A DNA stretch of 32,000 nt from Geminocystis sp. NIES-3709 (GCF_001548115.1 NZ_AP014821.1:1707262-1739261); one strand, 5' to 3'. Shown: positions 7,251-32,000, numbered from the stretch's first letter. A program made the numbers and translations. Notes: generated by a model not told the origin, from the letters alone.

Positions 7251-8846
7251 GTGTTATATCTGGCAGAAGTAAAAAGTCAAAATAGAGGATTCGTTGGTGG
7301 CTTTAAAACAGAGCTAAAACTATTGGCTTCTCAAGGAACGGATCAAACGTGGAATGCAGTGGCAGGAGAAGAAATTGTCATTAGTGATACCATTGCAGAT
7401 CAAACGGGGAAAGGAACTCTTTATATTCTCAATGTAGATAATAATAAACAAATACAGGGTTCTCCTGAATTGGCAGGAAATCGTGTTGTTAACTATCTCC
7501 GTCATCTTTCTCGCACTCTAGAAAAATCCAAAGAGCAAGAAACAGAAATTGAAGAATGGAAAACTTCCTTAAAAATACAAGGAGAGGAAATAGCGAGAAG
7601 ACAAGCAGAGTTAGATCAAGTACAACAGCTATTACAACAGCAACAAGATGAATTCGCTCAGTTAGAAAAAGAAAAAGAAAATTTGAGTGGAGCATGGGAA
7701 CAATTAAGAGAACAACAACGCTTAATTGCTCAAAATCAGGCTGTAAAAGTAGAAATGCAAAGTAAATTAAATTCTATTTTAGGAGATGTTGGTGATGCTT
7801 CTTTAGGGAGAAATAATCTACAACAGATTTCTTTTAGTGTTGATAATCAACAGAAGTTGTTGGATGATTATTGGCAAAGTGTGAACTCAATAAAAAGTTC
7901 TTTAGAACAAAAACAAGTAGAATTAACACAGAAAAAACAAAATATTGAACAACGCCGCCAAGAGGTACAGTCTTTACAAAATAACTTACAAAAAGCGATC
8001 ATTGGTTTACAATCAGATCAAAGTTTGTTAAGGGAAAAAGAAACCTCTTTACGACAACTCAATACATATTTAGATGCGATCGCTAGATTAGACCAGGAAG
8101 TTTCTTTCTTGGCTGATGATGTCGATGATATGGATATAGATTTTCAAGGCTTAGAAAGTATGCCTTTAGGAAATTTAGAAGAAATAGTGAACAAGATACA
8201 ACAAGAGACAGCAAAACTGGTTAATTTTGTCAACTTACAAGAAGAAGAATTGACTTTACAAGCCAATGAAGTAAAAGAAGTTCAAAGCAAACTGGATCAA
8301 GCTACAGACGTTGATAAATTTTCTTTAGAAACAGAATTAGCTGACGCACAAGAAGCAATGAAGTTGTTAAATGAGACTTTAGTAGGACAAAGAAGAACTT
8401 TAAAGAAACAACAAAAAATGCTTAATGAACATTTCAAAATTTTGAGTCGTCGTAAAGGAGTAATGGACGTGGACTTTGCCGAAACGGTTAATCTTAGACC
8501 AATGTTAGGAGAAATTGAAACTCAACGGAGTTTAATTCAACATAATAGGGATAAACTTGCTCAAGAAGTCAATGTTTTAAGACAAAGTACTACTCAAATT
8601 GAACAAAGTGTTTCCGTACAAAAACAACAGTATGACGAACAATTTAATCAATTTCAACAAGAGGAAGAAGGATATTTGCAATTGTATAAAGAAGTAGCTC
8701 AAATTGAATCTCAAATGAAGTTTTTAGAGCAGGGTTTACATCCCATTCAAGAACAATTAAACAATATTCGTAATAGTATGCAAGGGTTGGAACAATTTAA
8801 CCAAAAATTTACCCATGTTATAGATGAATTGCGATCGATGTTTTAA
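7251..8846 (+). CDS. hmpF: Long coiled-coil protein, HmpF-like (pilus motility/taxis protein)
   Basis: The GTG start gives MLYLAEVKSQNRGF...ELKLLA, an N-terminus I recall as typical of cyanobacterial HmpF. The remaining ~450 aa are Q/E/L/K-rich heptad-like coiled coil. Confidence 0.55.
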   Translation: MLYLAEVKSQNRGFVGGFKTELKLLASQGTDQTWNAVAGEEIVISDTIADQTGKGTLYILNVDNNKQIQGSPELAGNRVVNYLRHLSRTLEKSKEQETEIEEWKTSLKIQGEEIARRQAELDQVQQLLQQQQDEFAQLEKEKENLSGAWEQLREQQRLIAQNQAVKVEMQSKLNSILGDVGDASLGRNNLQQISFSVDNQQKLLDDYWQSVNSIKSSLEQKQVELTQKKQNIEQRRQEVQSLQNNLQKAIIGLQSDQSLLREKETSLRQLNTYLDAIARLDQEVSFLADDVDDMDIDFQGLESMPLGNLEEIVNKIQQETAKLVNFVNLQEEELTLQANEVKEVQSKLDQATDVDKFSLETELADAQEAMKLLNETLVGQRRTLKKQQKMLNEHFKILSRRKGVMDVDFAETVNLRPMLGEIETQRSLIQHNRDKLAQEVNVLRQSTTQIEQSVSVQKQQYDEQFNQFQQEEEGYLQLYKEVAQIESQMKFLEQGLHPIQEQLNNIRNSMQGLEQFNQKFTHVIDELRSMF

Positions 8847-11218: not shown

Positions 11219-11839
11219 ATGATGAAAAAATTAAAAGTTTGGCTAGTAAGTTTGTTGTGCATTGCAACTTTTTTAATTGCATCTCCAGTTTTAGCCGATA
11301 GAATCGCCGAAAAAAGTCCAGATTATCCCATTGTGGTAGAGAATTTGAATGCTTTATTGACTCTAAAATCAGATCCTCAACAAACAGAATATACTCCAGA
11401 AGAATTAAAACAGGCTATTAGCGAATTAGAATTTCAAAAATATGTTTTAGAAACCTCTGAAGATTGGGGAATTTGCCGTAATGAAACGGGAAAAAATCTT
11501 GCCATTTACGCACGTAATCAAAAAAAAGCAACTCCTAATACTCTATTTTACTTAGGTGATGGGCAGGAAACTGATGATAATTGGGACTGTGAAGCCGTTT
11601 ATATTCCTAACGATGTTAATGTCGCATCTTTAGAACTTCCTGATGGTCAACCATCGGCAGTTAGAATTCTTGACGGTACAAATTTAACCATCAGTACTAA
11701 TCCTGACACGGGAGAATTATTACTAGATGCTCCTTCTGCCTTAATTGAAGTCGTTGATGCCACTGATACAACCTTGTCAATTCCTAATGTGACTCAAACA
11801 GAAATTGATGCACAAGTAGCTAATGCACCTATTGATTAA
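11219..11839 (+). CDS. Secreted hypothetical protein
   Basis: The N-terminus is signal-peptide-like (MMKKLKVWLVSLLCIATFLIASPVLA|D). The mature part is acidic and has two Cys residues. I recognise no family. Confidence 0.5.
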   Translation: MMKKLKVWLVSLLCIATFLIASPVLADRIAEKSPDYPIVVENLNALLTLKSDPQQTEYTPEELKQAISELEFQKYVLETSEDWGICRNETGKNLAIYARNQKKATPNTLFYLGDGQETDDNWDCEAVYIPNDVNVASLELPDGQPSAVRILDGTNLTISTNPDTGELLLDAPSALIEVVDATDTTLSIPNVTQTEIDAQVANAPID

Positions 11840-11984
11840 TCATAGCTTTTTCCTCTTGCACAATTACAGAATAATTAAAAAACTTTTCTTTGTGTCTTTG
11901 CACCTTTGCGAAAGATTTCTAATTCTTTAATAATGCAATAAATAATACTTTTTGAGGACTAAGCTCTGACGATGAACTTTTGTC

Positions 11985-12005
11985 GAGGGTTTATCCCTCT
12001 TTTTT
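11985..12005 (+). terminator. Candidate Rho-independent terminator
   Basis: GAGGG-tttat-CCCTC is followed by TTTTTT. It lies 145 nt after the stop of the 11219-11839 ORF and 25 nt before the LysR start. Confidence 0.5.
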
Positions 12006-12029
12006 AATCTTAAATTTTATGTTTAAAAT

Positions 12030-12974
12030 ATGGCACAAATGACGTTGGATCAATTGCGGGTATTCCTTGCCGTTGCTGAACATTTACACTTTACCCGTGC
12101 CGCTGATACTTTATATATTACTCAACCTGCCGTTAGTGCGGCTATTCAAAATTTAGAAACAGAATATGGTGTCAAGTTATTTCATCGTTTAGGGCGACAT
12201 ATTGAAATTACGGAAGCTGGAGAATTATTAAAATTAGAAGCACTTAAAATTTTAGATCAAGTAGCATTAACGGAAAGAGCATTAAAAGAATTAAATAATT
12301 TACAAAGAGGAGAGTTAAAAATTGGTTCTAGTTTAACTATTGGTAATTATTGGTTGCCCGAAAAAATTAGTCATTTTCAGCGCAATTATCCTCAAATTAG
12401 TATTAATTGTACTCTAGCAAATAGTGAAGAAATTTGTTTAGGAACTGAAGCGGGAAAATTTGATTTAGGCTTAATTGAAGGAGAAGTAAAATCCAGTTTT
12501 AATGATATTTTACACCAAGAAGAAATTGGTAGCGATCGACTATTAGTTATTGTGGGCAGACAACATCCTTGGTTTAAACAAGAAAAAATAAAATTGACTG
12601 AATTAAAAAATACGGATTGGATTATGAGAGAATCGGGATCAGGTACACAGCAAAGGTTAGAAGAAGCTTTAATTAAGTGGGGAATTAACCCGAAAATATT
12701 AAAAACCACCTTAATTTTAAATACAGGGGAGATGATTAAAGCAATTTTAGAAGATACTCAATGTGCGGCGGGAATATCAGAATTAATGGTTAAAAAAGAG
12801 ATTGAATTAGGTACTTTAAAAGCTGTTAAAATTATAGACGATCGAGGGTTATCAATAACTGAACAAAAGAAAAAAAACTTAGAATTGGATATGATTAGAC
12901 CATTTTTAAAAATTAAACATAGTGAGCGTTTTCAAACACGAATTTCACAAGTTTTTGAAAAAATTTTATCTTGA
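12030..12974 (+). CDS. LysR family transcriptional regulator
   Basis: The N-terminal HTH is LDQLRVFLAVAEHLHFTRAADTLYITQPAVSAAIQNLE. A LysR substrate-binding-domain-sized C-terminus follows. Confidence 0.9.
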   Translation: MAQMTLDQLRVFLAVAEHLHFTRAADTLYITQPAVSAAIQNLETEYGVKLFHRLGRHIEITEAGELLKLEALKILDQVALTERALKELNNLQRGELKIGSSLTIGNYWLPEKISHFQRNYPQISINCTLANSEEICLGTEAGKFDLGLIEGEVKSSFNDILHQEEIGSDRLLVIVGRQHPWFKQEKIKLTELKNTDWIMRESGSGTQQRLEEALIKWGINPKILKTTLILNTGEMIKAILEDTQCAAGISELMVKKEIELGTLKAVKIIDDRGLSITEQKKKNLELDMIRPFLKIKHSERFQTRISQVFEKILS

Positions 12975-13118
12975 ACAGAGATTTTTTAAGGTGAATATTA
13001 CTCATCTTTTATTTAATTTATGCTTTTCTCCAAATCTTAACATCATGTAAGTCACTATATTTTTTCTGAGTTTCCATTAAATCACGTACGGAATCATTTA
13101 CGATCGTTATAGTTAATC

Positions 13119-13340
13119 TTAATTATTATCCCATTTTTCTGGTTGCATTAAATCAATAAGATGATCTCTGAGTAAGTAACCATTCAACTCTAATTCGATT
13201 TCTATTTTATGCCATTCTCTAGCAGGAATAAAATTACAAATAGTATAAATTGGTTGTTGGCGACTTAATAATCCTTTTTTTACTAACTGACGTACTTTTT
13301 GTTTAAGAGAATTTATGGAATAATTTAATTGTATATTCAT
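13119..13340 (-). CDS. Small hypothetical protein (73 aa), paralog of the 17610-17828 ORF
   Basis: The ORF has no recognised family. It aligns with the second small ORF through LKQKV..LV, EW, EL, G, D, DL and a C-terminal EKWD. Confidence 0.45.
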   Translation of the reverse strand: MNIQLNYSINSLKQKVRQLVKKGLLSRQQPIYTICNFIPAREWHKIEIELELNGYLLRDHLIDLMQPEKWDNN

Positions 13341-21131: not shown

Positions 21132-22307
21132 GTGAAAATAGTTTGTTCTCAAGTAGATCTTAAAAATAATTTATCATTAGTTAGTCGTGCCGTTCCCTCT
21201 CGTCCTACCCATCCCATTTTAGGTAATATCTTGTTAGTAGCGGATGAAGACAAAAACAGAATTACTCTCACTGGGTTTGATTTAAGTTTAGGAATGCGTA
21301 CCAGTTTTGCCTCGGAAGTAGAAGAAGGGGGTATGATTACTTTACCTTCTAAGTTATTAAATGATATTATTGCTCGTTTACCAGAAGGGGAGATTACTTT
21401 ATCTTATGATGAGGATGAATTAGATGAAAATCCTCTAGTTGCGATCGACTCTTTATCTGGTAAATTTCAATTAAGAGGAGTAAAGGGAGACGAGTTTCCT
21501 GAGTTGCCGATAGTCGAGAAAGAGGAAGCCTTTTTCTTACCCATTACTGCGTTGATTGAGGGGTTAAAAGGTTCTTTATTTTCTGCTAGTAGTGACGAAA
21601 CCAAGCAAATATTAACAGGGGTTCATCTTACCAGAGAGTTAGACAGTTTGGAATTTGCGGCCACGGATGGCCACCGTTTAGCTGTTGTTAAAACCACTGC
21701 TGAAAAACAAGAAGATGAAACCGAGGAAACTGATTCACCTTTAACGGAAGAACAGAATTTTAATATTACTATACCTGCTAGAGCATTAAGGGAGTTAGAG
21801 AAGATTATTTCTGGTGAGAAAGACAATGAATCTGTTGCTTTGTATGTAGATCAAGGACAAGTTGTTTTTGAGTTGGGGGATCAACATCTTACTAGCAGAA
21901 AGTTGGAGGGTGCTTACCCTAATTATGGTCAATTAATTCCTAAAAGTTTTGAAAGAACAATGATTGTCGATCGAAAACAAGTAATTGATAGTTTAGAGAG
22001 GGTTTCGGTTTTTGCAGATCAAAAAAATAATATGGTTAAGTTTAATTTAGATCATAATAGTAATGAACTAACTTTATCGGTGGAGGCTAAAGAGTTAGGC
22101 AATGCAAAAGCATCTTTGTCGGCAGAAATAACGGGAGAAGGCTTTGATATTGGTTTTAATATTCGCTATTTAATGGATGGGTTAAAAGCATTATCAGCTA
22201 ACGATATTAAGTTTCAGTTGAATGGGGCAACTCAACCAGTGATTATCACTCCTCTTAGTGGTTTACAAATGACTTATTTAATTATGCCTGTTCAAATACG
22301 GGAATAA
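21132..22307 (+). CDS. dnaN: DNA polymerase III beta subunit (sliding clamp)
   Basis: The GTG start gives MKIVCSQ..L...L..V..AVPSRPTHPIL. The three-domain length is right and the C-terminal PVIITP...YLIMPV motif is present. Confidence 0.95.
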   Translation: MKIVCSQVDLKNNLSLVSRAVPSRPTHPILGNILLVADEDKNRITLTGFDLSLGMRTSFASEVEEGGMITLPSKLLNDIIARLPEGEITLSYDEDELDENPLVAIDSLSGKFQLRGVKGDEFPELPIVEKEEAFFLPITALIEGLKGSLFSASSDETKQILTGVHLTRELDSLEFAATDGHRLAVVKTTAEKQEDETEETDSPLTEEQNFNITIPARALRELEKIISGEKDNESVALYVDQGQVVFELGDQHLTSRKLEGAYPNYGQLIPKSFERTMIVDRKQVIDSLERVSVFADQKNNMVKFNLDHNSNELTLSVEAKELGNAKASLSAEITGEGFDIGFNIRYLMDGLKALSANDIKFQLNGATQPVIITPLSGLQMTYLIMPVQIRE

Positions 22308-22646
22308 TAGACCTCTTGCAAAACTAAAATAAACAATATATTTTTGACAATTCGGAGTATGTAAGGAGTGAATGCCTCCGAAAAAACCAATTCACTCACT
22401 AATAGTATAATAAATATTTATATATTACTGATAAAAGTGCCTATTAACTAAAACTCAATTAATTTATTACAAATTTTCTTCATAAACCATAATTTTTCTT
22501 TTTTACTTAGGCTTCTTTTTGCTTTATTTCATAATTATAAATCCCAGCAATTAAGTTAAATCTTAATCCAAATCTTTTTCTTCTATTTCGATACCTTTGT
22601 GATAATATTTTAAATATTTTTAGCTTTCGATTAACATGTTCTATTA

Positions 22647-23939
22647 CTGATAATTCCAAGAACCTTGAAAAGCTATACAATTGCTGAAATCCCCAAAAAA
22701 TCCTGCTGAAAATGCTCTTTGATTACATCTGTTAGTCGAGTTGATGATTGAATTTTTCTCATTATTTGCGTTAATGATAAACGACGAAAATTTGCCATAA
22801 ACTGTATTGATAATAACATTAAATACATTATTATCTTAATTAATAATCCTGTATAAATTCCTTGTTTCCTTAATTTCATCTCGGCAATTTTTAGCACCGA
22901 TTTTAAAATTTTCCAAAACTGTTCAATAATATTGTGTGCAGTCCATGTCCGCCATATTTCCGCTCCTCTCAATGATATACTACTTAAATCTATCAACAAA
23001 TAACAATTACTATTACTTTTTTGAAAAAACAATAAATTGAGAGTTCCAAAAGTTGGATTTGATAATTTTTGTCTCACACAAGGTACATCAATTCCCCATT
23101 GATTTTCTTGATAATCTACTCTTTTTTGACCTTCACTTCCTTTGCCTTTAAAGTTCTCTCCTTCAAATACATAACTGCCTTTTCCAGCCATAATAATTTT
23201 GGTGAATCCTAGTTCAGATAATTGCTCTTTTAATTCTTTTGATGCATACCAAGAATCCAGAGTAATTGGATATTTAGTAATATCTATATTTTCTTTGAGA
23301 CATTCTTCTTTAATTTGTCTTAACATCCCAACTAATATACTCGGTTTATTTGTATTTTTTCTTCCTTGTTTAGAACAAAATATTAATCCAATTGGTATTG
23401 CTTTTCCCTTAATTGTTAATATTATTCCTAATATATTTTGTCCATTTACCACTTTTTTCCAACGTCCACTATACCAATTCCATGTACAACGTAATCTCTT
23501 TCCTACTCTGTCAATAACACTATCATCTACCGCAAGTGTTATATTTGCTCTTGATTGAGTAACAATACTTTTTTGTTCGATGATTTGCAACTGTTCCACT
23601 GCAACATTAATCATCATTAATTTTAAAACTTTTCGGAGTTTATATAATGTCCAAGAAGAAATTTCTGTATAGATTTTTTGGTGACTAACACCAAGCAAAT
23701 CTGCTAATTGTTTGGGATTAAAACAGCCATAAGCATGACTAATTGCTAAAATCATAATTGCTTCAAATGCTTCAATTTTATGAGAGCGAAATAATTTACT
23801 AAATTTGACAAAGAAAAGCTGAATTATGTTAGCCAGATGAAATCTCATGGTTAATTAAAAATATTTAGAGCATTTTCATTTAAGCATATGTCTTGATTCT
23901 TAACACTTTCAGCTTTTCAGTCATTTCCAGAATTGTCAG
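22647..23939 (-). mobile_element. Intact 1293-bp IS (IS4/IS701-like superfamily)
   Basis: Imperfect ~28-bp terminal inverted repeats are ctgataattcc...tgaaaagct and ctgacaattct...tgaaaagct. A 5-bp direct repeat TATTA sits at 22642-46 and 23940-44. There is one transposase ORF. Confidence 0.75.
22673..23848 (-). CDS. DDE transposase (IS4/IS701-like)
   Basis: The 391-aa ORF has candidate catalytic residues in LAVDDSV, TLDSWYAS and HNIIEQFWKILK, an IS4-type YREK-like block. Confidence 0.85.
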   Translation of the reverse strand: MRFHLANIIQLFFVKFSKLFRSHKIEAFEAIMILAISHAYGCFNPKQLADLLGVSHQKIYTEISSWTLYKLRKVLKLMMINVAVEQLQIIEQKSIVTQSRANITLAVDDSVIDRVGKRLRCTWNWYSGRWKKVVNGQNILGIILTIKGKAIPIGLIFCSKQGRKNTNKPSILVGMLRQIKEECLKENIDITKYPITLDSWYASKELKEQLSELGFTKIIMAGKGSYVFEGENFKGKGSEGQKRVDYQENQWGIDVPCVRQKLSNPTFGTLNLLFFQKSNSNCYLLIDLSSISLRGAEIWRTWTAHNIIEQFWKILKSVLKIAEMKLRKQGIYTGLLIKIIMYLMLLSIQFMANFRRLSLTQIMRKIQSSTRLTDVIKEHFQQDFLGISAIV

Positions 23940-24305
23940 TATTACTATTCTTTCTCTATTTATCCTTTTTTGTTCTTTACTCCCTAAAATATTGTAATGT
24001 AACCATAACCTGTTCTTCTACCGTTAGTTTTAGTTTTCTTCCCAGTTTTTTATTTTTGACTATTTTTACAAGTAATTGATAAGTTTTTTTGGTGACACCA
24101 AATCTTCTTTTAAAGTTTTTGGGTAACAATTTTTCCACTCTTTTTATTTTCATAAGCTAATCTTATGTTTTCTTTGGGTACGACGGCTTATAATAACAAA
24201 TTATGACCCTCTATTTTTATTTCAACTTAATTTTGCAAGAAATCTAGTAACTGATAAAAGTTATGAATAATTTATTTTCTCTTGGTTATATAAAATTTTC
24301 CTGAG

Positions 24306-25046
24306 CTAGAAGGGTAAAATAGTGCCATCCCAAGAGAAAAATTTACCAGTATCTTTAATAGTTAAATTATTGATTACAGATAATAGTTGTTGAGTACAAA
24401 GATTAAGAGAAAAAAGTTTTTCTGTAGGAACATTTTTTTGAAAAGGTGCAGATAATTGAGTATCTGTAGTTCCGGGATGTAATGCGACAACGATCGTATT
24501 TTTACTGACTCTACTATATTCGATCGAAATGTTTTTAAGCAACATATTTAAAGAGGCTTTGGAGAGACGATAACCATACCATCCTCCTAAATAATTGTCT
24601 TCAATACTGCCAACTTTAGCGGAAATAACGGCAAAAACACTGATTTGTGAATGTTTAAACAAGGGTAATAAATGTTTTGCCCAAATACCTGTGGGAATAG
24701 TATTTACTTGAAAATATCGTAATAAGTTATCACTACTAAGATGTTTAAGGCTTTTTTCTGGTTGTAATTCTTTTTCATGAAGAATCCCGACACAATTAAT
24801 TACTAAATGTAACTCTTGTACTCTCGATCGAATTTCTCTAATGGCTTCTTCGATTTGACTTTCAACGGTGACATCTACCTTAAGGGGAATTATTTTATTC
24901 GAGGATAAATTTTCTAATGAAGATTGAAAATAGCGATAAGTAGCAAAAATATATTTAACATCAGGTTGTTTAATTAACTGACGTACAAAACCATTTCCAA
25001 TACCTCCAGTTGCACCAATAATCAAAACATTTTTGTTTTTAATCAT
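24306..25046 (-). CDS. SDR family NAD(P)-dependent oxidoreductase (C-factor/sniffer-like subgroup)
   Basis: It has the GATGGIGNG Rossmann motif and the catalytic YRLSK (YxxxK) motif. It is on the same strand as the upstream kinase, 103 nt downstream of it. Confidence 0.85.
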   Translation of the reverse strand: MIKNKNVLIIGATGGIGNGFVRQLIKQPDVKYIFATYRYFQSSLENLSSNKIIPLKVDVTVESQIEEAIREIRSRVQELHLVINCVGILHEKELQPEKSLKHLSSDNLLRYFQVNTIPTGIWAKHLLPLFKHSQISVFAVISAKVGSIEDNYLGGWYGYRLSKASLNMLLKNISIEYSRVSKNTIVVALHPGTTDTQLSAPFQKNVPTEKLFSLNLCTQQLLSVINNLTIKDTGKFFSWDGTILPF

Positions 25047-25149
25047 CTTAATTTGTATTTTGAGTATTATAAACTGACATTCTGCATATTTTTATCACTT
25101 ATAAAAAACTATAATTATGTTATCTAATTTTGGGATGACACTTTCTGAT

Positions 25150-26892
25150 TTATGCAACAAAGCTTTTTGGAATTGTAAAAAAGAATTTTGATCCTTTTCC
25201 TAGATCTGATTCTACCCAGATTTTACCACCGTGACGAGTAACAATTTTTTGACATAAAGCTAAACCAATACCAGTGCCTTTGTATTTATCTTGGGTGTGT
25301 AGTCTCTGAAAGACGACAAAAATTCTCTCTTGAAACTCTGGTGAAATACCAATGCCATTATCTTCGACACAGAATAACCATTGATCAATTAAAGATTGTA
25401 CCGTTAAATTGATTGTTAGTGGTCGATCGCTATGAAACTTCAGAGAATTACTGATTAAGTTCTGCCATAGTTGAGTCAGTTGAAATTTATCTCCCATTAT
25501 TATAGGTAATTGTTTATAGGTAATCTCTGCATTTGTTTCTTTAATAGATATTTGTAAAATTTCTAAAATATCTTGAATAATTTCATTACAGTTTACTAGA
25601 GAAAATTCCTGTCCTCTAGTTTGAATTCTTGATAAAGATAAGAGATCTTTTATTAACTGTTTCATTCGATTAGAAGCAGACATTATCAAATCTAAATATA
25701 GTTGTCCTTCTTCATCTATTTGATGATAATATTCTTCTTTTAAAAGTTCAGAAAAACTGCTAATAGTTCTTAATGGTTCTTGTAAATCATGGGAAGCGAC
25801 GTAAGCAAATTGTTCTAATTCTTCATTCGATCGTTGTAATTCTTTATTCCAAGTTTTTAGCTCTTTTTGCATTCCATAAGTTTCGATCGCTTTGACAAAT
25901 GTTTCATTAATTAATCTTGTAAAAATCAAATCAACTCTATCCCATTTTTTAGGCTTTTTAATAGAAATAAACATTAAAAATCCTATAAAGGAATCCCCAT
26001 AAATCAAAGGATATGCTAAAAGAGATTTAATATTATTTTGTAGAATATAAGATTCTTTTAAGAAATTATATTTTTTATCATTTTCCAAGTTATTGATATA
26101 AACTACATTAAAATCTTTTAAAATATCTATTAAAAACAATAATTCATTGTTACAATTAATTTTTTTTGTATTTTCACCATAAAAATACTGATCTTGACCA
26201 AGTTTAGTAGTAGATAATCCTTTAAGAAATAAATAACTTTGATCAATGGCTAATACTTCAGTTATTTTTTTTAAAGAAATATTAAATTTATCTTCGATCT
26301 CATTAGTAGAAACTTTAATAAACAAACTAGAAATATAAGTAATTAATTGCTCTAATTTTATTTTATATTTAAGTCGTTCATTAATTTTTTTTATTTGTAA
26401 AGTTCTTTTTTCTACTATTTCCTCTAATTCTTGATTTAAAGTTTTTAACTGTAATTCTATTACCTGCTTTTCTTGAATACGAGTTTCTAAATCTTGATTA
26501 AGAATACTTAATTTTTCTGGTGTTGGTAACGCTAAAGCCATAGGAATAATGGGAAATAACTCAAAAGCCGTCAAAACTGACACTAACGCTGTCAATCCTT
26601 TAATTAATCCAGATAACCAGTAAAGGGGATACCAAATCGTTATTATTCCCATAACATGAGTTAAACCACAAAATAGAATAAAACAGCTAAATAGTAAAAA
26701 TATATAAGTGAAGGGAATATCATTTCTTTGACGCACAAAATAAATTAACATAAAAGGTATCGAAAAATAGGCTATCCCTATAAACATATCTGAAAGTAAA
26801 TGTAGCCAGACGAGAGAAGACTGCCATAAATAACAATGTCCATGAGGGATATAATAGTTAGAGGAAAAAATACTAATAGTGGAGAATAACAT
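25150..26892 (-). CDS. Sensor histidine kinase with an ETR1-like ethylene-binding-type membrane domain, coiled coil, GAF, HisKA and HATPase domains
   Basis: Residues 33-53, LSDMFIGIAYFSIPFMLIYFV, match ETR1 ISDFFIAIAYFSIPLELIYFV as I recall it. FCGLTH (C75, H79) aligns with ETR1 C65 and H69. The H-box is ASHDLQEPLR (H368), the N-box is NLISNSLKF, and the G-boxes are DNGIGI and GTGIGL. Confidence 0.88.
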   Translation of the reverse strand: MLFSTISIFSSNYYIPHGHCYLWQSSLVWLHLLSDMFIGIAYFSIPFMLIYFVRQRNDIPFTYIFLLFSCFILFCGLTHVMGIITIWYPLYWLSGLIKGLTALVSVLTAFELFPIIPMALALPTPEKLSILNQDLETRIQEKQVIELQLKTLNQELEEIVEKRTLQIKKINERLKYKIKLEQLITYISSLFIKVSTNEIEDKFNISLKKITEVLAIDQSYLFLKGLSTTKLGQDQYFYGENTKKINCNNELLFLIDILKDFNVVYINNLENDKKYNFLKESYILQNNIKSLLAYPLIYGDSFIGFLMFISIKKPKKWDRVDLIFTRLINETFVKAIETYGMQKELKTWNKELQRSNEELEQFAYVASHDLQEPLRTISSFSELLKEEYYHQIDEEGQLYLDLIMSASNRMKQLIKDLLSLSRIQTRGQEFSLVNCNEIIQDILEILQISIKETNAEITYKQLPIIMGDKFQLTQLWQNLISNSLKFHSDRPLTINLTVQSLIDQWLFCVEDNGIGISPEFQERIFVVFQRLHTQDKYKGTGIGLALCQKIVTRHGGKIWVESDLGKGSKFFFTIPKSFVA

Positions 26893-26961
26893 TTATTTCT
26901 CAAATTTGGTTTTTACTATAAATGTAATAATTTTAAAGCATTTAAGAAGCAAGATAAAATT

Positions 26962-28881
26962 ATGAAAATTCTTTTAGTGGAAGATGATCAACGTTTAGGA
27001 AAACTAATACATGACTATTTAGTTAATGAATCAGCCGTAGTTGAAATAGTTAATACTGGATTTAATATAGCAGAAAAACTGAGTAAACAATGTTATGACA
27101 TTTTAATATTAGATGTCATGTTACCCAAAAAAAATGGTATTGATATTTGTCGAGAATTACGATCGAATAATGTAGATATTGCCATCTTATTTATTACTGC
27201 TTTAAATAATAAAATAGATAAAATTAAAGCCTTTGAATCTGGTGCAGATGATTACCTAATTAAACCCTTCGATTTTGAGGAATTATTAGCTAGAGTAAAA
27301 GCTTTACTAAGACGTGAAAAAAAGACTGAACTTTGTAATCTAACATGGAATAATTTAGTTATGTATCCTGAAGAAAAAAAAGTGATATATAATCATAATT
27401 ATTTACATTTAACTCCCACAGAATTTAAAATTTTACAAATTTTTTTAGAAACTCCTAATAAAGTATTTAATACACAATCAATTATCGATCGACTTTGGGA
27501 AATTGATACCACACCAACGGATAGTACTTTAAGAACTCATATTAAATCTTTAAGAAAAAAATTAGAAGAAGTAGGATTAGATAAAAACTTTATAGAAACT
27601 CTATATGGTATGGGTTATCGTTTAAAACAAGAGAGAGAAAAAAGATCAGAAAAACAACATCAATCTTTTAATAATAATAAAAAAAATATAGATAAAATTT
27701 CTGATTTATTAGAAAAAAATATTAGAGAAAATAAAGAAAATCAATTTCAAAATTTAATCAAACAAATGTGGTTAGATAATCAAGAAACCGTTAGTAAAGA
27801 TTGTCAGGAATTATCTAATTATATACAGGGTAATAATAATATAGATATTAATAAAGCTATAAATATAGCCCATAATTTTGTTGGTTTTTTAGGAAGTCTT
27901 GGTTTCGACACGGCTAGTAAAATTTCTAAAAATATAGAAAATTTATTAAAAGAAAATCAGAATAATTTATCTGATAAGAAAGTAAAATTCAAGATACTTA
28001 CATTACTTGATACCTTAGAAAAAAATTTATTTCCCAATGGAAAGCAATGTATTCCTAAAAAGGAAAAAAAAGAAAAAATATTGCCTAAAAATAAAATAGA
28101 AATACTCGTTATTGATGAAGATATAAAAATAGCTAATAATCTAATCCTTTTTATGGATAATCCTCAAGTGGTTTTTCACTTTGTTCACTCGATCGTATTT
28201 GGGATAAAATATCTCAAAGAAAGACAATATGACGTGGTAATTTTAGAAACTCACTGGGAAAAATCTTCATCTGATCAATTAACTGATATATTAAACTTTT
28301 TAAAAGAAAAAAAAGAAGAAACTAAGACAATAATTTATAGTAAAAATGATACTTTAGAGAACAGATTATATTGTTCAAAATATCCTATAAGTGCTTTTTT
28401 AAATAAAACTAATACTCTTGATGTTTTATGGGAAAATATTTTTAATATTTTGTCTAATAATCACAGCACCTCTAATATTACGCCTCTTTATGACATTTTA
28501 GTTATTGATGATGATATTAGATTTACAGAGGTTTTAAAACAGAAATTAATTAGTAATAGATTGCCCATTAATATCAATATTATTTCTGATAGTGAAATTT
28601 TTTTAGAAGAGATAAAAAGAATTAAACCTCAATTAATTATTTTGGATTTACAAATGCCAAAATTAGATGGATTAGACATTTGTAAAATTATCAAAAAGGA
28701 TCCTTTTTTACAAAATATACCAATTATTTTTTTAACAGGAAATCTCGAACCTGATATTATGAATCAATTTGTTGAAGCTGGAGCAGATGATTTTATCAGT
28801 AAGTCTAAAATTGATTTAGAGTTATACCCTAGAATTATGACCCATCTTAAGAGATTTAATTTATCACATTTAGTTACTTAA
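26962..28881 (+). CDS. Multi-domain response regulator: REC, OmpR-type winged helix, HPt-like, REC (Glu at acceptor position), REC
   Basis: REC1 has EDD, D51, T79 and K101. The wHTH covers aa 125-222 and ends in GMGYRLK. The HPt-like motif is AHNFVGFLGSLG (H304). REC2 has VIDED, then VVILE (E429), S460 and K482. REC3 has DDD, ILD(562)LQMP, T592 and K614. Confidence 0.85.
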   Translation: MKILLVEDDQRLGKLIHDYLVNESAVVEIVNTGFNIAEKLSKQCYDILILDVMLPKKNGIDICRELRSNNVDIAILFITALNNKIDKIKAFESGADDYLIKPFDFEELLARVKALLRREKKTELCNLTWNNLVMYPEEKKVIYNHNYLHLTPTEFKILQIFLETPNKVFNTQSIIDRLWEIDTTPTDSTLRTHIKSLRKKLEEVGLDKNFIETLYGMGYRLKQEREKRSEKQHQSFNNNKKNIDKISDLLEKNIRENKENQFQNLIKQMWLDNQETVSKDCQELSNYIQGNNNIDINKAINIAHNFVGFLGSLGFDTASKISKNIENLLKENQNNLSDKKVKFKILTLLDTLEKNLFPNGKQCIPKKEKKEKILPKNKIEILVIDEDIKIANNLILFMDNPQVVFHFVHSIVFGIKYLKERQYDVVILETHWEKSSSDQLTDILNFLKEKKEETKTIIYSKNDTLENRLYCSKYPISAFLNKTNTLDVLWENIFNILSNNHSTSNITPLYDILVIDDDIRFTEVLKQKLISNRLPININIISDSEIFLEEIKRIKPQLIILDLQMPKLDGLDICKIIKKDPFLQNIPIIFLTGNLEPDIMNQFVEAGADDFISKSKIDLELYPRIMTHLKRFNLSHLVT

Positions 28882-28894
28882 TTTTTTAGATTAT

Positions 28895-29293
28895 ATGATG
28901 AAAATTTTTACCAATAATAGTACTATTACAATTTTAGTTATTGATGATAGTAAAGAGATTCAACAACTAATTAAAATGTCCTTAGAAATGATTAATCAAT
29001 GGCAAGTTATTAGTGCTAATTCTGGCTTACAGGGATTAAAAATAGCCATAGAAAAAGATGATTTAGATTTAATTTTATTAGATTATTTAATGCCCCAAAA
29101 TAAAGGAGATGAAATCATCAAAAAGCTACAAGCAAATCCAAAAACTGCATCTATTCCCGTTATCTTTTTAACGGCACAATCAGATGAACAATTTCACTGG
29201 AAAAAATTAGGAGCAAAAGGTATTATCTATAAGCCTTTTAACCCTATCAATTTAGGCGATTTAATCCGAGATATTTTAGAATGTCGAATGTAA
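28895..29293 (+). CDS. Single-domain (CheY-like) response regulator
   Basis: Receiver motifs are VIDDS, ILLDYLMP, FLTAQ and YKPF. It starts 13 nt after the preceding gene, so co-transcription is likely. An alternative ATG lies at 28898. Confidence 0.9.
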   Translation: MMKIFTNNSTITILVIDDSKEIQQLIKMSLEMINQWQVISANSGLQGLKIAIEKDDLDLILLDYLMPQNKGDEIIKKLQANPKTASIPVIFLTAQSDEQFHWKKLGAKGIIYKPFNPINLGDLIRDILECRM

Positions 29294-29502
29294 AATTCAT
29301 ACAATATTCAATCTCTGTTTAATATAAAAAAACACATAATAAAATTTAATTTATTAACGATAGTATGTCTGAATGATTTGTAAATTAATTAAATTATTAA
29401 AAAAAACTCTTATAAAATTTAGTAACTGAAACTTATCAACATTTTTTTTTCATCAATGATTTAAGGTTATTATATTTCAATCAATAATCTTTTTCTCACA
29501 TT

Positions 29503-30216
29503 ATGCTTGAAAAACGATCGCAACCATATCAACCATTACTACTAAGAATTATTCATAATTTTCAGGGGATATTTGTCATTTTGGCAATGATAACCGCTTT
29601 TTGGACATACAACACTTATGATGGACGATGGGGTAAAATATTATGGCTTTCTGATTGGCAAGAAATAGAGGGAATTCATGGAACTTTTGGCTTATTTGCA
29701 ATGTTAATATTACCCTTTTTTGTTATCTATGTGTTTCATTTTGGAAATAAAAAACTTATTCAAAGTAATAGTATTAGTCAACTAAAATTAATTAATAAGC
29801 CTATTTGGTGGTATTCTCTTCATCGCATCACTAATACATTTATAATTTTTGCTTTAACATTTTCAGTATTTACAGGAAAAATGATGGATGAAAAATGGTT
29901 GCCAAAAAGAGAATTAAATCATTTTTGGTACTATTTACATTTAATATCTCTTATTATCATAACTTTAGCCGTTGGGTTACATTTACTTATGAGTATAAAA
30001 ATCGGAGGCTATCCTCTACTGCTATCAATGATTGAATCTCAGATTAGAGAAAAAGATAGCTGGAAATCATACCGAAAAAAGATTGAGGATTACCAAAAAA
30101 ATTGGCTAACATATATAAAAAAAGAGTGGCTAACCTTACCTACTCTTTTTCAAATACTAGAACTAATAATATTATTAATAATTATTACAGCTTGGGTTAT
30201 TTCATTATTAAAATAA
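29503..30216 (+). CDS. Cytochrome b561-like (bacterial cytochrome b, Ni/Fe-hydrogenase CytB-type) membrane protein with a C-terminal extension
   Basis: Four TM helices each carry a His: LLRIIHNF, GIHGTFG, LHRITN and YYLHLISL...GLHLL. A charged segment and a fifth TM helix follow. The family call comes from the His/TM pattern only. Confidence 0.5.
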   Translation: MLEKRSQPYQPLLLRIIHNFQGIFVILAMITAFWTYNTYDGRWGKILWLSDWQEIEGIHGTFGLFAMLILPFFVIYVFHFGNKKLIQSNSISQLKLINKPIWWYSLHRITNTFIIFALTFSVFTGKMMDEKWLPKRELNHFWYYLHLISLIIITLAVGLHLLMSIKIGGYPLLLSMIESQIREKDSWKSYRKKIEDYQKNWLTYIKKEWLTLPTLFQILELIILLIIITAWVISLLK

Positions 30217-30372
30217 TACATATTTTCTTAAGTTAAATTTTTTCTCAAGTTTCGATCGAAATATGATTAATTTTACTTAATAAAGTATGTTCATCAGAAC
30301 TAAAAAGTATGAAAAAAAATTTTTTAAACTCCCCTTTAATTTTGTCAAAAACTTATTACTTATTCTTCCAAA

Positions 30373-32000
30373 TTATTCTTTACCTTTATCAAAAGCAATG
30401 GAATATACTGGGGTTGAATTACTTTGAGCCATTTCTGTATAAGATTGACGAACTTCCACATTAACTGCTACGGTTTTCGCATCATAAAGTTGAGTAGCTA
30501 ATTTTGGATACAACCCAACAGTGATAATCAATGCGAGAAAACAAGCGGCAATGAATACCTCTCGTGGTTTTGCATCTTCGTAAACGGCTTCACCCGGTAA
30601 GACACAGTTAGTACCAAAACATACAGCAGGATCATTATCGAAATTTTCTTTTTCTTCAGTATCCCCAATAATACACATTTGAACTTTATCTGTGCCGTAG
30701 AATAATTGTCTTAGCATCGATAATAGATAAATAGGGGTTACAATCAAACCCACGGCGCTTAAAATTACTCCCACTGTGCGAAACGTTGAATCATAAACAT
30801 CACTATTACTAAAACCCACAAATACTGCTAATTCACTGACAAAACCACTCATACCGGGTAAAGCTAAAGAAGCCATGGCACCGGCTGTAAATAACGCAAA
30901 TACTTTGGGCATTGCTTTTCCTATATCTCCCATCTCATCTAAGAACATGGTATGAGTTCGATCGTACGTCACCCCCGCAAGGAAGAATAATAATGCGGCA
31001 ATTAAACCATGAGACAACATTTGCAACATTGCACCACTTATACCTAAATCAGTAAAAGAAGCGATGCCGATTAATACAAAACCCATGTGAGACACCGAAG
31101 AATAAGCTAGACGGCGTTTCATGTTGGTTTGACCAAAAGAGGCAAAACCGCCGTAAACTATGTTCACAACCCCTAAAATCACGAGTAAGGGAGCAAAATA
31201 AACATGGGCTTCTGGTAATAAGCCTAAATTGAGCCTAATTAAGCCATAACCACCCATTTTCAATAAAACTCCTGCCAAAATCATGGATACAGGAGAGGAG
31301 GCTTCACCATGGGCATCAGGTAGCCATGTATGAAGGGGAAAAACTGCCAATTTGACACCAAAGGCGATTAATAAACCACCGTATAATAAAACTTCTAACC
31401 CGATAGGATATTCTTTTAATCCTAATGCCACCATATCGAAGGTGATTTCTCCACCGCCATATAATGCCATACCTAAACCAGCTATGAGGATAAAAATTGA
31501 GGCTAACGCTGTATAAAGTAAAAATTTTGTAGCGGCGTAACGTCTTTTTTGTCCACCCCAAATAGAAACTAATAAATATACGGGAACTAACTCTAATTCC
31601 CACATGATAAATAATAATAAAATATCTTGAGCAACAAATACACCAATTTGCGCTGAGTATAACAATAACATTAAAAAATAAAATAAACGGGGTTTTCGAT
31701 CGACTTGCCAAGCAGAAAACATTGATAAAGTAGTTACAAATCCTGCTAAAAGTACTAAAGGCATAGATAAACCATCCACTGACACAGCCCAACTCAAACC
31801 CAGTTGAGGAATCCATCTATATTGTTCAACAAGTTGTAAACTGGCGTTAGTTGTATCGTAGTGTTGCCAGAAAACATAACACATTAAAATAAAATCAGTT
31901 AATCCGACTCCTAAAGCATACCATCGAAGGGTTTTACCTTCTTTATCAGGCACGATGGGAATTGCCAGTGCGGCGATTAAGGGTAAGGCAATTATTGCGG
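30373..32000 (-). CDS. ndhD: NAD(P)H-quinone oxidoreductase (NDH-1) subunit 4, NdhD1/D2-type; N-terminus runs off the window
   Basis: The polytopic antiporter-like sequence includes [29 protein letters not shown] long C-terminal DAKPRE tail is typical of NdhD1/D2. The reading frame stays open upstream of the GTG at 31953 (..[22 protein letters not shown]) to the window edge. Confidence 0.92.

Follow-up and report, generated by a model that had tools for sequence, protein, structure and literature searches.

An ethylene-receptor-like kinase encoded divergently from an RcaC/RcaF-like regulator pair in Geminocystis

A three-gene signalling locus

Positions 24306-30216 of a 32,000-nucleotide stretch of DNA from Geminocystis sp. 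NIES-3709 (the window, numbered from its first letter) include a sensor histidine kinase gene of the ethylene-receptor type, transcribed divergently from the genes for an RcaC-like multi-domain response regulator and a single-domain receiver. The chances are about even that these three genes, kinase, regulator and small receiver, are the functional unit, a two-component locus native to Geminocystis. The gene content, the domains, all of the catalytic and acceptor residues and the conservation of the three genes within a Geminocystis subclade can be read directly. Judged by sequence, the regulator and the small receiver match the composition described for RcaC and RcaF. The novelty lies in the pairing of an ETR1_N kinase with such a pair, since the component families are all known; a literature search found no paper on an ETR1_N kinase beside an RcaC/RcaF-like pair. 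That the kinase senses ethylene or copper and feeds an Rca-type His-Asp-His-Asp relay ending in an OmpR-class factor throughout the subclade is a more doubtful proposition, which might nevertheless prove correct.

Geminocystis sp. NIES-3709 is a unicellular cyanobacterium whose genome has 33% GC and which carries out type II chromatic acclimation via CcaS/CcaR (PMC4417701); among its proteins are ones that match the kinase and the regulator with 100% identity. The kinase gene (25150-26892, minus strand) is an open reading frame (ORF) of 580 codons with Pfam matches to ETR1_N, HisKA and HATPase_c. A 69-bp intergenic spacer (26893-26961), presumed to hold both promoters, lies between it and the regulator gene (26962-28881, plus strand), which encodes 639 amino acids and is defined by its ORF, Pfam matches, a family alignment and an AlphaFold model. 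The receiver gene follows after a gap of 13 nt (28895-29293, plus strand) and encodes 132 amino acids with a Pfam Response_reg match. An initial annotation, made from the sequence alone, had proposed these ORFs with the same coordinates, strands, spacer and gap, and all of them match the ORF calls.

The spacer shows no sequence conservation with the corresponding spacers of Geminocystis strains NIES-3708 and CENA526, and no shared motif is apparent by eye. A promoter and terminator scan returned 36 promoter-like sites, fewer than the 46 expected, and zero terminators; a scan of this kind does not define the operon boundaries here. An Rfam scan of positions 22000-31000 gave no match.

An ethylene-receptor-like kinase

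The first 135 residues of the kinase (26488-26892, minus strand) form an ETR1_N or ethylene-binding domain (EBD). The Pfam profile ETR1_N (PF25487) aligns to residues 27-122 with 131 bits, far above its cut-off of 27. Across 20 aligned cyanobacterial homologues, D35, C75 and H79 never vary, and K98 seldom does. The numbering of AzoEtr1 maps these four residues to AtETR1 D25, C65, H69 and K91, which hold the copper cofactor and couple its binding function to output (PMC11819568). Equivalents of all four copper- and ethylene-binding residues of AtETR1 are present in the kinase. Y42, I45 and I72 are likewise invariant in the cyanobacterial alignment, and P46 is nearly invariant. Wang et al. 2006 reportedly identified Y32, I35, P36 and I62 of AtETR1 as further required residues; kinase residues Y42, I45, P46 and I72 are presumably those positions, likewise shifted by +10.

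The public NIES-3709 annotation (P0001) begins the kinase at a later internal start and gives a protein of 528 residues. This start drops residues 1-52 (26737-26892), comprising helix 1 with D35, Y42, I45 and P46. The 580-residue ORF aligns to its orthologues from residue 1.

Residues 136-345 (25858-26487, minus strand) comprise a coiled-coil linker and a GAF-like region with a GC content of 21%, the least conserved stretch of the orthologue alignment. The Pfam GAF match is weak (E 1.4e-3) and falls below the cut-off. No cysteine in this region is conserved across kinase orthologues, and a search of solved structures with the region returned at best an unnamed 'Sensor protein' (E 0.078), with no significant GAF match. 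Because a conserved cysteine and a significant match to a solved GAF domain are both missing, the region is read as a degenerate GAF domain that is not a bilin sensor. The ETR1_N score and these negatives bear out the initial description of the kinase as ethylene-receptor-like and lacking a bilin-type GAF. The same kind of search returned no solved ETR1_N domain.

The remainder of the kinase, residues 346-580 (25150-25857, minus strand), consists of the dimerization and histidine phosphotransfer (DHp) domain and the catalytic core, matched by HisKA and HATPase_c. The H-box reads SHDLQEPL, and the phospho-accepting histidine is H368. Kinases with an ETR1_N domain are common among bacteria. In species-representative genomes at least 600 stretches match the pattern used, at least 591 of them encoding relatives of the domain; the best 80 of these are all cyanobacterial.

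An RcaC-like regulator

The regulator is a chain of five domains whose conservation was read from an alignment of 24 family members. Pfam recognizes three Response_reg stretches, a Trans_reg_C domain and a borderline Hpt match, and the AlphaFold model (mean pLDDT 80.8) contains five folded units in the order receiver (REC), winged helix, helical bundle, REC and REC. REC1 (residues 1-119; 26962-27318, plus strand) adopts the receiver fold in the model and carries D8, D9, D51, T79 and K101, all invariant. The OmpR-type winged helix that follows (residues 127-221; 27340-27624, plus strand) scores 80.6 bits against Trans_reg_C and is likewise folded in the model.

The third domain (residues 236-356; 27667-28029, plus strand) reaches 24.5 bits against Hpt, just short of the cut-off of 24.6. 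It is nonetheless called a histidine phosphotransfer (HPt) domain because H304, within an AHxLxGSLG motif, is invariant across the 24 family members, because Hpt matches in 21 of them, and because the model folds this segment into a helical bundle. G308 and G314 are also invariant or nearly so. REC2 (residues 379-498; 28096-28455, plus strand) has a glutamate, E429 in the sequence ILETHW, at the acceptor position throughout the Geminocystis clade, whereas the rest of the family has the acceptor aspartate; the substitution marks REC2 as a pseudo-receiver. REC3 (residues 510-638; 28489-28875, plus strand) retains conserved D516, D517, D562 and K614. Pfam, alignment and model agree on the multi-domain regulator with a built-in HPt domain and extra receivers that was first proposed, beside a CheY-like protein, from sequence.

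Full-length homologues of the regulator occur throughout the cyanobacteria, with 28-31% identity over 99% coverage outside the Geminocystis/Cyanobacterium clade. One of them is annotated as 'Protein RcaC' and others as 'multi-component transcriptional regulator, winged helix'. A scan of metagenomes with the regulator alignment relied on generic OmpR motifs, and nearly all of its 80 loci are ordinary OmpR regulators; full-length RcaC-like proteins were found at two of them, L090 and L091.

Many RcaC-like regulators carry an additional C-terminal GGDEF domain, as at L015 7051-9462, L044 7254-9938, L090 1111-3495 and L173 11216-13555. The existence of such proteins implies that the same relay architecture could deliver cyclic di-GMP as an output besides transcription.

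The small receiver and a second receiver class

Read from its sequence, the 132-residue receiver has D17, D18, D63, T93 and K113. Two classes of small receiver are distinguished here, under labels of this study's own making: class A denotes the single receivers that accompany RcaC-like regulators, and class B is a second type of 144-149 residues. The window receiver scores 70-160 bits against class-A receivers and about 35 bits against class-B receivers, and is accordingly placed by sequence in class A as an RcaF-like protein.

A second conserved branch follows the close orthologues of the kinase. It consists of a class-B receiver (144-148 residues) and then a REC-HisKA-HATPase or REC-PAS-kinase-REC gene, as seen at L086 11737-13318, L003 11776-13351 and L062 12442-14818. 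At L086 the receiver occupies 11737-12171 and the REC-kinase 12194-13318.

Conservation of the three-gene core

In Geminocystis strain NIES-3708 (locus L086), the kinase is divergent from the regulator and a class-A receiver in the same layout as in the window; on the other side, downstream of the kinase, come a class-B receiver and then a REC-kinase. Beyond the class-A receiver lie a gene for a 564-residue protein and then amino-oxidase (PF01593) and squalene/phytoene-synthase (PF00494) genes. The 564-residue ORF (L086 5490-7184, minus strand) stands directly past the class-A receiver and has no Pfam match. CENA526 (locus L003) shows the layout of NIES-3708, and its kinase aligns continuously with the window kinase over 577 residues at 74% identity. 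The CENA526 kinase has a W23L substitution within the otherwise invariant HGHCYLW motif.

In Geminocystis herdmanii PCC 6308, the kinase is reduced at this position to its first 38 codons (71% identity, E 8e-15). The relic opens a gene call of 410 residues assigned to ThiD2/TMP-TENI (L083 8678-9910), and its invariant LW is mutated (HGHCYREQ). The kinase has been deleted and its start fused in frame to the next gene, the thiamine-biosynthesis call. The divergent arrangement is kept in at least three Geminocystis genomes, with a relic in a fourth. Protein identity between strains is about 65%, at which synonymous sites are saturated.

Related cassettes recur at greater distance. Two distant genomes (L015 and L044) carry operons in which an RcaC-like gene, extended by GGDEF, is followed by an ETR1_N multi-PAS kinase and a class-A receiver. 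Planktothrix tepida has an RcaC-like gene, a large sensor kinase and a class-A receiver in this order, the kinase being without an EBD, and the metagenome contig L090 has the order RcaC-like regulator, class-A receiver, kinase. In Stanieria, an RcaC-like regulator with GGDEF precedes a GAF/PAS protein whose gene extends beyond the end of the locus. At L062, a class-A receiver lies upstream of an ETR1_N kinase and a class-B receiver downstream.

A candidate phosphorelay

The conserved divergent arrangement in Geminocystis and the recurrence of the cassette in L015 and L044, Planktothrix tepida and L090 argue for an Rca-like route from the kinase through the small receiver, the HPt domain and a receiver to DNA binding, a proposal which, built by analogy, could equally well turn out right or wrong. 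Ligand occupancy of the membrane domain would alter autophosphorylation of the kinase at His368. The phosphoryl group would then pass to Asp63 of the 132-residue receiver, from there to His304 of the regulator's HPt domain, and onward to Asp51 and/or Asp562 of the same protein. Phosphorylation of the regulator would switch its winged helix and alter transcription of its targets. The residues predicted to take part in phosphotransfer, H368, D63, H304, D51 and D562, are all present in the sequence. Ethylene and/or copper would be the ligand by analogy with known receptors, and the direction and order of phosphotransfer, like the output, are modelled on the Rca precedent.

Neighbouring genes and base composition

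Two further genes flank the signalling core. The SDR oxidoreductase gene (24306-25046, minus strand; 246 residues) matches adh_short, resembles PRK09009 below the cut-off, and is separated from the kinase by 103 nt. The gene for a cytochrome b/b6-domain protein (29503-30216, plus strand; 237 residues; Pfam Ni_hydr_CYTB, PF01292, 44 bits) begins 209 nt past the receiver gene. Both are judged to lie outside the system. The interval between dnaN and the SDR gene contains an ORF for an IS701/IS4-like transposase (22673-23848, minus strand), 457 bp away from the SDR gene, with candidate 23-nt inverted repeats on either side (22305-22327 and 24227-24249) that are 83% complementary. Elsewhere in the window, a 531-residue ORF (7251-8846, plus strand) has no Pfam match.

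The GC content of positions 24306-30216 is 26.4%, against 32.1% in the remaining window; the cytochrome b gene stands at 28.4% and the SDR gene at 31.3%. Asparagine, lysine and isoleucine together make up 24-32% of residues in the proteins of the five ORFs, compared with 11-18% in DnaN and NdhD. The hexamer CGATCG occurs 51 times in the whole window against 1.7 in shuffled sequence, an over-representation of about 30-fold, and ten of these sites fall within positions 24306-30216 (1.69/kb, against 1.57/kb outside). These counts of GC, residues and sites bear out the AT-richness, the Asn/Lys/Ile-rich proteins and the presence of CGATCG that had been noted at the outset. The insertion sequence (IS) element is the sole 2.5-kb stretch of the window without a CGATCG site, suggesting that it arrived more recently than its surroundings.

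The orthologous locus in G. herdmanii has a similar density of CGATCG (40 sites in 21.9 kb), as does the one in CENA526 (33 in 20.4 kb); the hexamer is almost missing from the NIES-3708 locus (4 in 21.7 kb). The difference between strains is perhaps tied to a restriction-modification system.

Alternative explanations

Several observations weigh against a coupled three-gene pathway. Every close kinase orthologue examined, in NIES-3708, CENA526, Cyanobacterium stanieri, L004, L056 and L062, has a class-B receiver directly downstream, and the kinase core is closest (50-74% identity) to exactly those ETR1_N kinases. Because the nearest relatives all carry class B downstream, the comparison suggests that class B is the ancestral cognate partner of the kinase. 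NIES-3709 has neither a class-B receiver nor a REC-kinase at the kinase locus, and a search for relics of either in 23849-25149 reached at best E 0.09. In G. herdmanii, the regulator and class-A receiver (70% identity) are intact without the kinase, and in two more distant genomes, L085 and L174, the regulator stands alone. The kinases of L015 and L044 are just 32-34% identical to the window kinase in their cores, which indicates that their trio arose by independent assembly. The CENA526 kinase gene (L003 10001-11728) is broken by an in-frame stop after codon 346, and this kinase could be either a pseudogene or the product of a sequencing error. Taken together, the class-B pairing and the kinase-free regulators fit an arrangement in which the kinase and regulator share only a divergent promoter region: the true partner of the kinase would be the class-B receiver and REC-kinase, moved or lost in NIES-3709, and the regulator pair would be fed by one or more other kinases. 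Such adjacency without coupling is a serious contender, though rather unlikely. It leaves the retention of the divergent arrangement in at least three Geminocystis genomes, with one relic, to be explained; the regulator and the 132-residue protein are the sole receivers still beside the kinase in NIES-3709, ETR1_N kinases have been independently recruited to RcaC-like cassettes in L015 and L044, and L062 combines class A upstream of an ETR1_N kinase with class B downstream. Some of the same losses could instead mean that the Geminocystis cluster is being dismantled, so that the intact NIES-3709 genes no longer make a working pathway. The deleted kinase in G. herdmanii, the interrupted one in CENA526, the missing class-B receiver and REC-kinase in NIES-3709 and the Asp-to-Glu change in REC2 would all suit a decaying remnant, which is nevertheless improbable given that none of the three NIES-3709 ORFs is truncated and that all family-invariant catalytic, acceptor and ligand-binding residues are retained in them.

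The flanking genes raise a different pair of explanations. The initial annotation had joined all five genes into a module with redox-type partners, the cytochrome b561-like protein and the SDR being taken to serve the kinase and phosphorelay. Physical adjacency together with low GC speaks for such an ethylene/redox island in one genome only. The cytochrome b family is widely conserved (52-72% identity across cyanobacterial orders), and in NIES-3708 and CENA526 the orthologous gene is surrounded by housekeeping genes and unlinked from the kinase. Within 10 kb of the kinase at 80 other ETR1_N loci there is no homologue of the SDR or of the cytochrome b protein; the corresponding loci in NIES-3708, CENA526 and G. 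herdmanii and the two with a solitary regulator, L085 and L174, also lack both, and no SDR homologue lies near the regulator or the kinase in any other locus examined. NIES-3708 and CENA526 carry the receiver and REC-kinase after the kinase, not an SDR, and the 103- and 209-nt gaps set both genes apart from the signalling genes in the window. The initial annotation had proposed a gene-neighbourhood survey in which unlinked orthologues would count against its module; linkage of kinase, regulator and receiver was recovered in NIES-3708 and CENA526, linkage of cytochrome b was not, and the five-gene module is thereby refuted on its own terms while the three-gene core stays. A functional role for the redox genes is scarcely credible, and in the absence of conserved linkage both are judged incidental. 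The IS element and the missing class-B receiver and REC-kinase point to local rearrangement in NIES-3709, the likely reason why the SDR gene abuts the kinase, and both neighbours were likely placed by chance through rearrangement beside the IS element. The claim of an AT-rich island, horizontally acquired along with the adjacent IS element, meets similar difficulties. The region has 26% GC against 32% in the remaining window and the transposase lies close by, but the orthologous kinase, regulator and receiver genes of four Geminocystis genomes are equally GC-poor (23-27%, against locus means of 30-35%) in differing contexts, those of NIES-3708, CENA526 and G. herdmanii included. CGATCG is no less dense within the region than in the rest of the window, and the IS element alone lacks it. 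Within genes, GC is lowest (21%) in the least constrained segments, the linker/GAF and HPt regions, a pattern that mutational drift would produce where constraint is weak. Since low GC is common to the orthologues and the CGATCG density is native, the three-gene core is not regarded as a foreign island, an origin that is very improbable.

The cytochrome b orthologues of NIES-3708 and CENA526 (L170 5387-5860 and L171 3672-4142) lie near a low-molecular-weight phosphatase/ArsC-type gene (PF01451). No PF01451 gene adjoins the cytochrome b gene in the window.

Significance

The downstream wiring is known for very few bacterial EBD kinases despite their number. If the kinase does signal through the RcaF/RcaC-like pair, an ETR1-type sensor would be linked to a defined transcription factor, and the locus would provide the first bacterial instance of an ethylene-receptor homologue connected straight to a transcription factor of the multi-step phosphorelay kind. 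NIES-3709 would then represent the simplest natural version, with the competing class-B branch lost. The Rca cassette would, in turn, be a general output module onto which varied sensors (cyanobacteriochromes, PAS/GAF arrays and EBDs) have been grafted. Geminocystis offers a natural series in which to study kinase-receiver pairing: NIES-3708 has the full set, NIES-3709 a reduced one, CENA526 a kinase with a nonsense codon and G. herdmanii a deleted kinase. The more exotic traits suggested at first, redox partners and an island character, are not upheld, and the locus is built from known families.

Comparison with known systems

The SynEtr1/UirS-UirR-LsiR system of Synechocystis PCC 6803, whose EBD is functional, shares with the window an EBD kinase encoded beside two response regulators (PMC6682694, PMC3546692). 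UirS differs in its bilin-binding cyanobacteriochrome GAF domain. UirR belongs to the AraC family and LsiR is of the PatA type (PMC3546692), whereas the partners in the window are an RcaC-like regulator of the OmpR class that contains an HPt domain, and a receiver without further domains. The EBD alone is held in common, and given the families of UirR and LsiR the locus is not a UirS/UirR/LsiR system. Of the loose parallel drawn initially, an EBD kinase beside two regulators stands and an OmpR-class UirR does not.

Other ETR1-type receptors resemble the kinase more closely than its surroundings. GeiEtr1 of Geitlerinema PCC 7105 and plant ERS1 are described as EBD-GAF-histidine kinases without a receiver (PMC6682694), and the ethylene-binding residues are conserved in the window kinase as well. 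The reported neighbour of GeiEtr1 is a lycopene cyclase gene and not a phosphorelay, and the plant receptors signal through CTR1 and EIN2. AzoEtr1 of Azospirillum brasilense is an ETR1_N kinase whose D35, C75, H79 and K98 carry the same numbers as in the window kinase, and the response-regulator gene beside it is its proposed output; AzoEtr1 is proteobacterial, and no HPt relay is described for it (PMC11819568).

The initial annotation knew of no described system with this composition. The EBD-GAF-kinase architecture is, however, represented by GeiEtr1 and ERS1 (PMC6682694), and the regulator and receiver have the composition of RcaC and RcaF (PMC4390838, PMC4752607). RcaC combines a winged helix with three CheY-like receivers and works downstream of the single-domain RcaF (PMC4390838, PMC4752607), and the kinase RcaE, RcaF and RcaC form a four-step His-Asp-His-Asp relay ending in transcriptional control (PMC4390838, PMC4752607, PMC13079394). 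The RfpA-RfpC-RfpB system of far-red light photoacclimation is described in similar terms as a kinase, a CheY-like receiver and a regulator whose winged helix has receivers on both sides, although RfpA is a knotless phytochrome and RfpB has two receivers and no described HPt (PMC4390838).

With RcaE-RcaF-RcaC of Fremyella diplosiphon, which governs type III chromatic acclimation, the locus shares a sensor kinase, a single CheY-like receiver and a large regulator of the OmpR class that contains three receiver-like domains. The order REC, winged helix, HPt and further RECs is found in the regulator, and the single receiver is encoded with it. Likeness to RcaC is a matter of architecture, the 28-31% identity being to RcaC-like proteins and not to F. 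diplosiphon RcaC itself. The kinase is divergently transcribed here, in contrast to the rcaE-F-C cluster, and the acceptor site of REC2 is a glutamate. A search for the L-box, presumably TTGTTA-N5-TTGTTA, gave 18 matches against 15.8 expected and none in the 69-bp spacer. The Rca regulon is an unlikely target because NIES-3709 performs type II acclimation with CcaS/CcaR (PMC4417701). The principal difference lies in the sensor: RcaE is a bilin-binding green/red cyanobacteriochrome kinase, whereas the kinase here pairs ETR1_N with a degenerate, non-bilin GAF domain. Because its sensor is no cyanobacteriochrome, the locus is not Rca in the strict sense and is, by analogy, best described as a putative Rca/Rfp-type relay with a different sensor.

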